NCBI RefSeq assembly: GCF_005696695.1
Contig: NZ_CP040006.1
Span: forward strand, 90,001-122,000
Source: Schaalia odontolytica
GTDB taxonomy: Bacteria > Actinomycetota > Actinomycetes > Actinomycetales > Actinomycetaceae
Reading direction: 5' to 3'
DNA: 32,000 bases
The notes beneath the pieces are model-generated. The model ran no database searches, was not told the origin of the DNA, and saw nothing but the letters and a program-made list of their open reading frames with translations. Shown here one piece after another: positions 9,719 to 14,382 of this stretch. A program made the translations under genes and the position numbers. Numbering within the stretch: position 1 is the stretch's first letter; every line of letters starts with the position of its first letter.

Positions 9719-10917
9719 CTACTTGGCGTGGTAGCGGGGGCTGGTGCCCAGGTGGATTGGCACGCCGGCATCGGTGTTGCTGATGACGCTTTCGTCGGCT
9801 CCGCGGTAGGTGTACGAATCGTCGAATGCGATGTCGCGGGGGTTTACGAGGCCGTTCATGTACTGCAGGATTTCGTCCGTGGTGGGACCCCTGTGCATGG
9901 TCGGGTCCATCAACGGGTTCTCGTCGGGGTACTGGGACGGATCGGTGTTCATCATGGCACCGAGGTCAGCAACCCCGTACCCCGTGTACTTGTTCCAGCG
10001 GCCCTCGTTGTTCAACGCCGTCTTGGTCATCAGTTGGAGGAGTTGGTTGCTGGTGGCGTTGGGCCACTTTTGTTTGGCTAGGGCCAGGAAACCTGCGATG
10101 AGGGGCGTGGAGTACGACGTGCCGTCTGTGGTTGCTTTGTTCCCTGTTTCGTAGTTACGGACGGTGATAGGGCCACCTATTGCTGCGGTGGTGGTTCCCT
10201 GCCCCCACGAGGAGTAGGAGGCTACCTTGCCGGTGGTGTCGATGGCGCCGACGCCGACGACGCCGGACCACTTTGCGAGGCCGGTGTCCGTTTCGTTATT
10301 CGCCGTGTTACCCATGGCGGTGACGACCATAACGCCGCGGGCATTGGCGTGGGCGATCGCCCACTTGGTTGCTTCATCAAGATCTTCGTCGGACGAGGAG
10401 ATGCTGATGATCTGAGCCCCGTCGCTGATGGCGCGATTGATGAGAGAGTTGTTTTCTTCGATGCCATTACCGTTGTGGACCGGGCAACCGGCAGCGGCAT
10501 CTTCGCCCTCATCCTCGAACCTGGTTCGGTAGGTCAGGAGGGTGGCGTCGGGGGCAACGCCGTACGTTTTGGAGACTAGGAGTGAGGCGATGGCTGTCCC
10601 GTGGCTCTTGGAATACACGCTCGAGCGGACAGTGCAGGGGCTCTTGTCGATGATGGTGGCGCCTGCGAGTTCGGGTGCGCTGGTGTCGACCTCGCCGTCG
10701 ATGAGTGCGATGGTGACACCCTTGTCCGTGTAGCCCTTGGCCCGCGCCTGATCGAGCTGGTAGTAGGTGAAGTAGGACTGGTCGGCCGCCGTGATGGGGT
10801 CGGCGGCGTGCGCGGGGGCGCCGGGCAGGGCAATGGCCCGGCCGCCAGGGCCAGGGTCATCGCACACGCACCCGCAAGGCGCAGCAGCCGCCGGTGTCGC
10901 GTTGGGCTAGTCGTCAT
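9719..10917 (-). pseudogene. S8 subtilisin-like serine peptidase paralog A, frame broken inside the signal peptide
   Basis: ATG 10917 (ATGA overlap with the paralog B stop) opens MTTSPTRHRRLLRLAGACAMTLALAAG. The peptidase frame (ORF 9719..10867) carries Asp (IALIDGEVD), His (SHGTAIAS) and Ser (DGTSYSTP). The two frames differ by one missing G relative to paralog B (CCC 10837-10839 vs CCCC 12032-12035). Length 1199 nt is not a multiple of 3. Confidence 0.75.
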
Positions 10918-12134
10918 TTGGCGTGGTAGCGGGGGCTGGTGCCCAGGTGGATTGGTACGCCGGTGTCGGTGTTGCTGATGACGCTTTCGTCGGCCCCGCG
11001 GTAGGTGTACGAATCGTCGAAGGCGATGTCGCGGGGGTTCACGAGGCCGTCGATGTATTGGTGTACTTCCTCGGTGGTGGGGCCCTTGCGTCGAGTCGGG
11101 TCCATGAGCGGGTTTTCGTCCGGGTACTGCGAGGGGTCGGTGTTGATCATGGCGCCGGGATCAACCGCTCCGTATCCGATGTAGGTGTTCCATCCGCTTT
11201 GATCGGTCCGAGCTGTCTTGGTGAGTAGTTGGAGGAGTTGGTTGCTGGTGGAGTTGGGCCACTTCTGCTTGGCCAGGGCCAAGAATCCGGCGACGAGGGG
11301 AACAGAGTTTGATGTTCCGTCCGTAAATCCTTTATTCCCGCTCTCGTAGTTGTGTACGACGACGGGGCCGCCTACAGCTGCGACGGTGGTGCCTTGGCCC
11401 CACGAGGAGTAGGAGGCTACCTTGCCGGTGGTGTCGATGGCGCTGACACCCACGACGCCGGACCACTTCGAATAGGTGTCGAGTGTTTCGTCTTTCGCGT
11501 CGTTACCCATGGGGGAGACGACGATGACGCCGCGGGCGTTGGCTCGGGCGATCGCCCACTTCGTTGTGTCAGAAGACTCATCGTTAGATGAGGATATGCT
11601 AATAATCTGAGCGCCGTCGCTGATAGCGCGGTTAATTAGGGAGACGGGGTCTTCAATACCGTTGCCGTTGCTGCTGGTGCAGTCACGGCCGGACACGTCA
11701 TTGTCTCCGGGCTGGCTGGTCGTGTAGGTCAACAGTGTGGCGTCGGGGGCTACTCCGTAGGCCTTGGAGACCAGAAGCGAGGCCATTGAAGTGCCGTGTG
11801 TCTTGGAGAAGGGACTCGAGGTGACGGTGCAGGGGCTCTTGTCGATGATTGAGGCACCTGCGAGTTCGGGTGCGTTGGTGTCGACCTCGCCGTCGATGAG
11901 TGCGATGGTGACGCCCTGGCCCGTGTAGCCCTTGGCCCGCGCCTGGTCCAGCTTGTAGTAGGCGTAGAAGGTCTGTTCGTTGGCTGTGATCGGGTCGGCG
12001 GCGTGAGCGGGAGCGGCGGGCAGGGCGATGGCCCCGGCCGCCAGGGCCAGGGTCATCGCGCACGCACCCGCGAGCTGTAGCCGCCGTCGGCGGCCGGACA
12101 CGTGGTTCGTGGTCACCATTGGCGGGGATCCCAT
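10914..12134 (-). CDS. secreted S8 subtilisin-like serine peptidase paralog B
   Basis: GAAGGA 6 nt before ATG 12134. Signal peptide with SGRRRRLQLAGACAMTLALAAGAIALPAAPAHA-AD (possible twin-arginine type). Catalytic motifs IALIDGEVD, THGTSMAS, DGTSNSVP. No C-terminal hydrophobic anchor. Confidence 0.85.
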   Translation of the reverse strand: MGSPPMVTTNHVSGRRRRLQLAGACAMTLALAAGAIALPAAPAHAADPITANEQTFYAYYKLDQARAKGYTGQGVTIALIDGEVDTNAPELAGASIIDKSPCTVTSSPFSKTHGTSMASLLVSKAYGVAPDATLLTYTTSQPGDNDVSGRDCTSSNGNGIEDPVSLINRAISDGAQIISISSSNDESSDTTKWAIARANARGVIVVSPMGNDAKDETLDTYSKWSGVVGVSAIDTTGKVASYSSWGQGTTVAAVGGPVVVHNYESGNKGFTDGTSNSVPLVAGFLALAKQKWPNSTSNQLLQLLTKTARTDQSGWNTYIGYGAVDPGAMINTDPSQYPDENPLMDPTRRKGPTTEEVHQYIDGLVNPRDIAFDDSYTYRGADESVISNTDTGVPIHLGTSPRYHAK

Positions 12135-13876: not shown

Positions 13877-13896
13877 TGCAGTGTCCTTCCCTATCC

Positions 13897-14382
13897 TCAG
13901 AAGTCAGAACTGCCGCCGACAACAGGATTGTTAGTATCCTGTGAGCCTGTGGAGGTCGTTGATGACGAAGGCGTCGTGGAAGTGGGATTGAGCGTTCCCG
14001 CAGCTTGATGGACCGGAATACCGAGCGAGGAGACGAGAGAACCGAGGAAAGGAATGGAAGCCATGTTGGCTTCTTCGCCCTTAAATTTACGCATGACCTC
14101 GTCTTCCGTCTTCTTGAAGTCGTCCTCGGTATCGAGAACTTTCCGGTCGAAATCACGGAGCTTATCGCCCTCGGATGCGAAACCTTCCCGAGCGGTGTTG
14201 TAGGCGTCCTGGAGTGCCTGACGAGCGGCCTCAACGCCAGACTCGGTGCCCCACACGTCGGCAACCTGAGCGTCCGCAAACTCGCGAGCGGTCTGAGCGG
14301 CCGTGTTGAAAGACTCCGCTCCAAGGGCTCCATCCTGGCGCGTCTGATCATGATTCTGGGAGCTGAAGCTCACGTCGCTCAC
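13897..14382 (-). CDS. 161-aa WXG100-like helical-hairpin protein with Ser/Thr-rich tail
   Basis: GGAGG (14388-14392) 5 nt before GTG 14382. Two predicted helices flank ADVWGTESGVEAA. C-terminal NPTSTTPSSSTTSTGSQD. Stop lies 20 nt upstream of the 587-aa gene. Confidence 0.65.
   Translation of the reverse strand: MSDVSFSSQNHDQTRQDGALGAESFNTAAQTAREFADAQVADVWGTESGVEAARQALQDAYNTAREGFASEGDKLRDFDRKVLDTEDDFKKTEDEVMRKFKGEEANMASIPFLGSLVSSLGIPVHQAAGTLNPTSTTPSSSTTSTGSQDTNNPVVGGSSDF

Follow-up and report, generated by a model that had tools for sequence, protein, structure and literature searches.

A putative orphan AesA/AesB-type module with anchor-less mycosin-like subtilases in Schaalia odontolytica

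The window analysed here is a stretch of 32,000 nucleotides (nt) from Schaalia odontolytica (NCBI RefSeq assembly GCF_005696695.1, contig NZ_CP040006.1, positions 90,001 to 122,000), and all coordinates below refer to it unless another locus is named. Its minus strand carries four tightly spaced genes between 9719 and 14382, encoding a small protein of 161 amino acids (aa), a large protein of 587 aa and two subtilases of peptidase family S8, called S8-B and S8-A. The first two are related to AesA and AesB, a pair of type VII (Esx) substrates described in a bioRxiv preprint of September 2026 (PMC13622651, cited here from its searchable text). The small, AesA-like gene (13897..14382) has a GTG start with GGAGG 7 nt 5' of it, and its stop lies 20 nt before the GTG start at 13876 of the large, AesB-like gene (12113..13876). 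The latter overlaps S8-B (10914..12134, 406 aa, ATG 12134) by 22 nt (12113..12134), so that the stretch encoding DGWDPRQW-stop is read as MGSPPMV in the frame of S8-B; an additional in-frame ATG of S8-B lies within this overlap at 12119. The stop of S8-B and the next ATG share the sequence ATGA (10914-10917), and from there S8-A, a second subtilase paralogue that is frameshifted, extends to 9719 (9719..10917). An earlier reading of the letters (the sequence-only reading) had described this packing with the same gap and overlap, and its coordinates hold; the ATGA junction it saw between the two subtilases is present as well, but S8-A is not an intact open reading frame (ORF) from ATG 10917.

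For the small protein 55 homologues were found, and no Pfam or NCBIfam model matches it even at E <= 0.1. AlphaFold2, run on a 25-sequence alignment, predicts helices at aa 8-38 and 47-102, in an unreliable model with a predicted local distance difference test score (pLDDT) of 42. In this low-confidence model the two helices that the sequence-only reading had placed around ADVWGTESG lie on either side of W44. The turn between them reads W44-G-x-E47-x-G49 (family form W-[GTS]-x-E-x-[GA]), and Q39, W44 and E47 are invariant in 54/54 paralogues. At the end of helix 2 lies F89xxxE93; the pattern [FYW]xxx[DE] is kept in 42/54 paralogues, with Phe in 47/54 and Glu in 49/54 at the two positions, Phe replacing the Tyr of YxxxD/E. 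The N-terminus is conserved in the family (M.DV.FDS..H.Q), whereas the tail of about 60 aa is disordered and Ser/Thr-rich, ending in ...SSDF; in the family, the last two residues are usually an acidic and then a hydrophobic one.

The large protein likewise has no match in Pfam or NCBIfam, and for its N-terminus none was found even at E <= 0.1. It is built from an N-terminal helical bundle, a conserved central motif, a variable Gly-rich region and a charged C-terminal tail, and this architecture is kept in relatives down to 27-30% identity. The N-terminal helical domain (aa 1-~195, 13292..13876, minus strand) was delimited by AlphaFold2 and by conservation over 64 sequences. Helices are predicted from a 45-sequence alignment at aa 5-20, 26-50, 55-102 and 143-192, with a pLDDT of 70-89 over aa 1-100 and of 73-79 over aa 151-190, and the model is disordered from about aa 223 on. 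Conserved at the N-terminus are MVxSPxYxRL, in which S4-P5-x-Y7 is invariant in the 64 sequences, and R158-E159. The hairpin turn between helices 2 and 3 is formed by G52-F53-x-G55 (13712..13723, minus strand; predicted turn aa 51-54), an FxG counterpart of the WxG motif, with G52 in 63/64, F53 in 64/64 and G55 in 64/64 sequences. The helix-turn-helix that had been proposed around YQGFRGQTG agrees with the predicted helices 26-50 and 55-102 flanking the G-F-x-G. The hydrophobic Gly/Ala stretch claimed behind it did not survive comparison: at aa ~120-150 hydrophobicity is not kept in the paralogues, AlphaFold2 gives a low-confidence beta-hairpin there, and a transmembrane (TM) segment at this position was rejected since the stretch is not conserved.

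Further downstream, the central motif (aa 284-336, 12869..13027, minus strand) reads G..GSRxxPITDPxDL..DLxHTR..G....NG...GG.TPAPP.D..HPLW, as judged from the invariant columns of three alignments (A4, A5 and A6); the family form of the block, GSRxNPITDPxDL...LLHTRVNG...GGHTPAPP...HPLW, is still recognisable at 27-30% identity. It is followed by a Gly/Ala-rich low-complexity region of 177 aa (aa 354-530, 12287..12817, minus strand), close to the approximately 170 aa of Gly repeats noticed from the letters. Within it lies a 39-nt tandem repeat (12525..12664, 3.6 copies, 90% matches) encoding the 13-aa unit GLGAGGLGASGRG/S. The length of the region differs among strains and paralogues, and homologues of 92-100% identity are 545-587 aa long. 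One family member, P0332, has been named 'PE_PGRS family protein' by the Joint Genome Institute (JGI), a name that appears to rest on Gly-rich composition alone since no PE domain was detected in it. The charged C-terminal tail (aa 531-587, 12116..12286, minus strand) reads KDDKKGKRRKY..FEDDEDD..GYVNP(557-561)MSQTYGSD..KDDGWDPRQW-COOH and includes the KKGKRRKY...EDDEDD motif of the sequence-only reading, all of whose quoted motifs are present. Its family form is KKxRRxY.F..EDDED..GYVNP.SQTYGSD..DDGWDxxQW-COOH, and GYVNP (12194-12208) occurs in all aligned sequences, 17 in A5 and 45 in A6.

Both subtilases match Pfam Peptidase_S8 (S8-B with 96.5 bits), and the best curated family is TIGR03921, the mycosin of the type VII secretion system (T7SS), with 154.2 bits for S8-B and 143.7 bits for S8-A; the next best family reaches <=43 bits. 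Neither protein attains the equivalog cut-off of 278.75 bits, and an S8 protein encoded in an Esx locus (L080) is likewise below it with 138.9 bits. In plain sequence comparison with PDB sequences, MycP1 was no closer to the window S8 proteins than subtilisin BPN'. The catalytic residues D81, H113, N211 and S275 of S8-B are intact and its C-terminus reads HLGTSPRYHAK; S8-A also keeps D, H, N and S, though its frame is broken. Among 57 members of the S8 family C102 and C152 are invariant, His, Asn and Ser are present in 57/57 and the catalytic Asp in 49/57. Under a strict threshold a hydrophobic N-terminal signal core was found in 49/57 members, and both window subtilases have one. The signal sequences reported earlier are therefore present, but the RR within them is not conserved among the paralogues and supports no Tat inference; export of the S8 proteins by the Tat pathway was rejected on this ground. 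A C-terminal TM segment was found in none of the 57 members (last 120 aa, maximal Kyte-Doolittle value 0.69), in agreement with the anchor-less C-termini already noted for the window pair. Instead, H[LIM]GTSP[RKA][YF]H plus one or more basic residues ends the protein in 57/57, with no TM segment beyond. The longer form of this end, ...SY.YRG.DE....H[LIM]GTSP[RKA][YF]H (9719-9760 and 10914-10955 in the window, and the S8 paralogues of loci L001-L085), matches no known sorting signal or Pfam domain. Measured as mycosins, both window S8 proteins have a signal peptide and the Asp, His and Ser; they fall below the TIGR03921 cut-off, have no C-terminal TM anchor and lie outside a T7SS locus, in which paralogous S8 genes are found.

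In eight of the 57 S8 paralogues, all of them in Esx-linked modules, Gly stands in place of the catalytic Asp (VTIAVIGGPVD vs VTIALIDGEVD). Examples are L080:11575-12810, directly 3' of the large gene, L058:12939-14171 and L079:11560-14024. With their His, Asn, Ser and C-terminal tail retained, these proteins may be candidate pseudoproteases. A different kind of change is seen in S8-A of the window. The frame starting at ATG 10917 encodes the signal peptide alone and stops at 10576, and the S8 domain lies in another frame, from GTG 10867 to 9719. Signal peptide and domain are out of frame because of a 1-nt deletion in a G-run (10837..10839, minus strand), which is GGG here and GGGG in five homologues, namely paralogue B and four orthologues; the four orthologues are intact at 398 aa. 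The frameshift could be a homopolymer sequencing error, a pseudogene or phase variation.

The operon is one copy of a conserved cassette. An exhaustive HMMER search of 1.84 billion representative proteins gave 83 matches to the large-protein family, many of them fragmentary, and a scan of GTDB genomes with alignment A4 gave 79 loci, all from Schaalia, Pauljensenia, 'Actinomyces' or records mislabelled as other genera. The family is a narrow one of the Actinomycetaceae and is multi-copy, with 3-7 modules per genome. A small ORF lies 17-36 nt 5' of the large gene in 79/87 family instances, and an S8 gene lies 3' of it at essentially every locus. In 62/68 complete modules, across paralogues and species, the S8 ORF and the large gene overlap by exactly 22 nt, which means that the codons of ...DGWDPRQW-stop are read as MGSxPMV in the other frame. 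With an identical overlap in so many modules, the arrangement is real and far beyond chance. Modules carry one to five S8 copies, with 1 to 3 copies among strains. The distances between large proteins correlate with those between the adjacent S8 proteins (Mantel r = 0.76, reached in 0/999 permutations), showing that the large and S8 genes duplicated and diverged as one unit. The locus itself is syntenic and conserved in many Schaalia strains; the closest relative is Schaalia sp. ORNL0103, with 96.9% nt identity to the window over about 8 kb.

Using tblastn with ORNL0103 proteins, no EccC, EccD-like or WXG100 gene was found in the 32-kb window, as had been remarked for EccC/EccB/EccD-like genes. 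Elsewhere, each genome has one module within a genuine Esx locus, where it is accompanied by EccC, an EccD-like gene and two WXG100 genes. At ten loci a paralogous module is located directly 3' of a gene of 1347-1363 aa. In L080 this gene encodes EccC (TIGR03924 817 bits, cut-off 509; TIGR03925 758 bits, cut-off 347), with two WXG100 genes (PF06013, 60 and 79 bits) 5' of it. The same layout recurs on Contig3 of ORNL0103 (L058), in the assembly most similar to the window: two WXG100 genes, an FHA protein, an EccD-like membrane protein (PF19053, weak), EccC, a lipoprotein, the small gene and the large gene, followed by five S8 genes, a Ser/Thr kinase and a transglutaminase-like protein. The link extends to distant relatives. 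P0257 (27% identity) lies between a small gene and an S8 gene, with an FtsK/SpoIIIE ATPase a few genes away, and P0254 (28% in A5, 31% in the representative search) adjoins an EccC-sized gene, EccD and WXG100 genes. The Ser/Thr kinase and the large transglutaminase-domain membrane protein 3' of the Esx-linked cassette (L058:18054-21679, L080:14227-18626) match the Esr threat-sensing cluster (EsrE, EsrD), which the searchable text of PMC13622651 describes as integrated into the Esx operon.

According to that text, the Esx system of S. odontolytica F0309 limits the proliferation of Saccharibacteria. AesA and AesB (OBNOAD_00323/00324) are encoded in the Esx cluster and absent from the delta-eccC secretome, depend on each other for secretion and co-immunoprecipitate, and in an AlphaFold3 model of the heterodimer they form an elongated bundle of helices similar to PE/PPE, EspB and LXG-Lap complexes (PMC13622651). 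AesB has a Gly-rich region of ~160 aa and a charged region of 56 residues, and substitutions in its conserved 'GYNVP' motif abolish its effect; the tail is proposed there to dock on a target. The order printed in the preprint is probably a typo, every sequence studied here having GYVNP. Distal AesB homologues (OBNOAD_01965, 00733 and 00094) are each reported beside a small EsxA/B-like gene, and several distal substrate clusters are induced by the epibiont. As a guess, the window locus may be the counterpart of OBNOAD_00093-00095. In architecture and gene order the window pair fits this description, and it is most likely a distal paralogue of AesA/AesB. The 'undescribed type' of module suggested by the sequence-only reading no longer applies to the pair, and its suggestion of cargo for a system encoded elsewhere is supported by the paralogues in EccC/WXG100 loci, one of them in ORNL0103, and by the EccC-dependence reported for AesA/AesB (PMC13622651).

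This analysis establishes that the genes belong to the family, that the module is conserved, that paralogues are linked to EccC/WXG100 loci, and how the S8 proteins are built. On this basis we consider it probable, at roughly 70%, that the operon is an orphan AesA/AesB-type module whose heterodimer would be exported by an Esx apparatus encoded elsewhere in the Schaalia genome. The small hairpin protein would pair with the N-terminal helical bundle of the large protein, and a single Esx apparatus would export both together, with the charged GYVNP tail as the likely functional end. The paralogue linked to Esx restricts Saccharibacteria epibionts in their growth. The S8 subtilases, translationally coupled to the large gene and duplicated with it, would be soluble, mycosin-derived proteins exported by Sec; they would most likely meet the large protein outside the membrane and then process or bind it. 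We infer that this pair is itself exported and that the S8 proteins act on it in some way.

Several results weigh against this reading. The small protein gives no match to the WXG100 models (PF06013/TIGR03930), to which the genuine WXG100 proteins of these genomes score 62-79 bits, and the large protein matches no WXG100, PE, PPE, LXG or Esp model of Pfam or NCBIfam. In a profile comparison with WXG100 by hhalign (against a shallow 12-sequence template), the small family reached a probability of 5.3% and the large N-terminus one of 0.6%, and the small family compared with the large N-terminus was not significant either. Foldseek with the monomer model of the large N-terminus retrieved generic helical bundles from PDB (best E = 0.75), with no PPE, EspB or other T7SS substrate in the top 50, and the small-protein model is too poor for a fold search. 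As hidden Markov models (HMM), hhalign and Foldseek were negative, the two proteins cannot formally be placed in WXG100, PE/PPE or LXG, and the similarity to these families proposed earlier found no support in these tests. The resemblance to an Esx pair comes from architecture and motif geometry, together with the genomic context and the heterodimer model of PMC13622651. The geometry is Esx-like in that W44 of the small protein lies at the turn with F89xxxE93 45 residues on, and the G-F-x-G of the large protein lies at a hairpin turn. CFP-10 has W43 and Y83xxxD87. The frameshift in S8-A also counts against the reading, and the Asp-less S8 paralogues do so insofar as it assumes a purely proteolytic role. 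Finally, the secretome in PMC13622651 showed the pair of the Esx cluster only, with no distal candidates, and deletion of one undetected candidate substrate had no phenotype.

It might be possible that the S8 proteins do not serve the maturation of the large protein at all and act as non-catalytic or structural partners or as co-effectors, in the latter case docking on the tail conserved in the large protein and acting on a target such as the epibiont surface or the cell wall. In mycobacteria the protease activity of mycosins is dispensable for ESX secretion, and mycosins stabilise ESX complexes independently of this activity. The eight paralogues that have lost the catalytic Asp and kept His, Asn, Ser and the C-terminal tail would fit such a role, as would the H[LIM]GTSP[RKA][YF]H present in all 57 proteins, which suggests a binding or sorting function, the co-divergence with the large protein and the docking proposed for the AesB tail in the searchable text of PMC13622651. 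However, most paralogues, including both window copies, keep the full D-H-N-S set, and a protein without a TM anchor would have no MycP-like place in the membrane complex, so that we regard this alternative as doubtful.

Still less likely is that the distal module is a duplicate which has become redundant or is decaying, and which under normal conditions is neither exported nor used. The broken S8-A, the S8 copy number of 1 to 3 among strains and the F0309 data, in which distal candidates were undetected and one such deletion was silent (PMC13622651), could be read in this way. Yet the small, large and S8-B genes are intact with all family-invariant motifs kept, the locus is conserved in synteny in many Schaalia strains, several distal clusters respond to the epibiont (PMC13622651), and a frameshift in a homopolymer may be an assembly error. 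A module unrelated to type VII secretion, that is, a cytoplasmic or envelope scaffold pair beside ordinary Sec-secreted nutritional proteases that came to lie near division and cell-wall genes by chance, would be in keeping with a window devoid of Esx core genes, with the missing sequence or fold match of the pair to known T7SS substrates and with neighbours such as ppiA, rhomboid, crgA, sortase and pknAB. This explanation seems very improbable to us: paralogues and relatives down to 27% identity are embedded in EccC/WXG100 loci, an Esx-linked paralogue is secreted in an EccC-dependent manner (PMC13622651), and the small and large proteins, themselves devoid of signal peptides, are in every case coupled to secreted enzymes. 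The orphan AesA/AesB-type module is therefore the reading we prefer; the observation made from the letters is partly confirmed, and the interpretation given then, right in outline, is supported in part.

Tentatively, the data can be drawn into a wider picture. The mycosin of the Actinomycetaceae might have left the membrane complex and become a soluble, Sec-exported partner that was duplicated with each AesA/AesB-like pair, some copies being catalytically dead. Each cassette might then provide a dedicated extracellular complex of a substrate with a protease or pseudoprotease, with docking or cleavage at the S8 tail HLGTSPRYHxK and at the central or C-terminal motifs of the large protein, and the set of cassettes might constitute a diversified surface defence against epibionts. 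We think it possible rather than probable that all of this applies.

The right flank of the operon contains ppiA, a rhomboid gene, DUF364, crgA, a gene for a DUF881 protein, a sortase, a glutamine amidotransferase and pknB/A. A scan for promoters and terminators returned 0 promoter-like and 4 terminator-like sites, a count not above that in shuffled sequence. 5' of the operon lies an ORF of 251 aa (14617-15372, minus strand; about 200 aa as called in relatives) with apolipoprotein-like helical repeats, a C-terminal TM segment and a weak DUF5324 match. It was rejected as a part of the module and is probably outside the cassette, because it was seen solely at orthologues of this locus, whereas the modules of other paralogues do not have it. 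Convergent with the operon, the plus strand carries at 153-9653 a tandem array of paralogous small membrane proteins of about 135-170 aa (for example 8152-8649, 8667-9137, 9195-9653, 7137-7586, 4804-5304 and 3173-3688), which have Pro/Gly/Gln-rich N-termini and 2-3 TM segments, and whose sole Pfam match is a weak one to DUF4190. Of the two clusters that these array proteins form in the family loci, one has 48 members in 16 loci and the other 20 members in 15 loci; every inspected member is at this orthologous site, and the copy number differs among strains. AesB-family modules are also carried by records named 'Sanguibacter keddieii strain 250_SKED' (L015, L023, L051) and 'Xylanimonas cellulosilytica strain 352_XCEL' (L017, L029, L034, L048, L062, L068). 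L015 is about 94% identical to the window at the nt level over 6.4 kb, and L017 has an orthologous module with 70% protein identity; the organism names on these records are almost certainly wrong.

Outside mycobacteria and Bacillota, type VII substrates are poorly known, and the AesA/AesB family has recently been tied to the defence of oral Actinobacteria against parasitic Saccharibacteria. The present work shows the family to be organised as repeated small-large-S8 cassettes, one of which keeps its place on the chromosome near the pknAB cell-wall cluster. The pair family is already described in the searchable text of PMC13622651; new here is the cassette with anchor-less mycosin-like subtilases on every copy, including the role proposed for the S8 proteins, as that text mentions no peptidase, subtilisin, mycosin, MycP, cleavage or proteolysis. 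The coupling provides a testable handle on what might happen to the disordered AesB-type effectors after export, be it cleavage, release or complex formation, and bears on a change of the mycosin role in a monoderm lineage. In addition, the 22-nt overlap, in which ...DGWDPRQW-stop is read as MGSxPMV in the other frame, offers a rule for finding such substrates in genomes.

Compared with known systems, the window pair is closest to AesA/AesB, with which it shares the genus Schaalia, the gene order from small hairpin gene to large gene and, by description, the helical N-terminal bundle, the variable Gly-rich region and a charged tail (about 56 aa) in which GY(VN)P is conserved. It differs in its location outside the Esx cluster, adjoining ppiA and rhomboid near pknAB, and in sequence, as the window large protein shares about 35-45% identity with the Esx-linked paralogues found in other strains (33-40% in the best tblastn segments against those of L058, L080 and L083, and 43-45% over aligned A5 columns). 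Furthermore, S8 genes are always coupled to the pair here and are absent from the searchable text of PMC13622651, and EccC-dependent secretion was seen for the Esx-linked pair, whereas the window pair is known from its sequence.

With WXG100 proteins the small protein has in common the predicted helix-turn-helix, the invariant Trp at the turn, the partner-adjacent gene and paralogues beside EccC. It is, however, 161 aa long with a disordered tail of 60 aa, and the Esx locus of these genomes has its genuine WXG100 pair in addition, encoded by separate genes. An analogy to LXG effectors and their Lap factors in the T7SSb of Bacillota has been drawn for AesA/AesB in PMC13622651, and in both, a large effector whose N-terminal targeting domain is helical is encoded next to one or more small helical partners. 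The large protein differs in that it has no LXG Pfam match, no C-terminal toxin domain and no immunity gene, and belongs with an actinobacterial EccC-type system.

The likeness to PE/PPE proteins (PE_PGRS, PPE-MPTR) and to EspB with MycP is broader. A small helical protein is paired with a large one; one of the two has an aromatic-x-Gly at its hairpin turn, and in the other helix 2 ends with an aromatic-xxx-acidic motif. The C-terminal regions are rich in Gly or disordered, multiple copies have spread away from the secretion locus, and an S8 protease of mycosin lineage belongs to the system. MycP1 cleaves the C-terminus of EspB. The motifs differ, being FxG, W-G-x-E and FxxxE in the window and WxG and YxxxD/E in the known proteins, with no sequence, profile or fold similarity detected. 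Whereas MycP is a single membrane-anchored copy per secretion locus, the S8 proteins of the cassettes have no TM anchor, exist in multiple copies and accompany every substrate pair.

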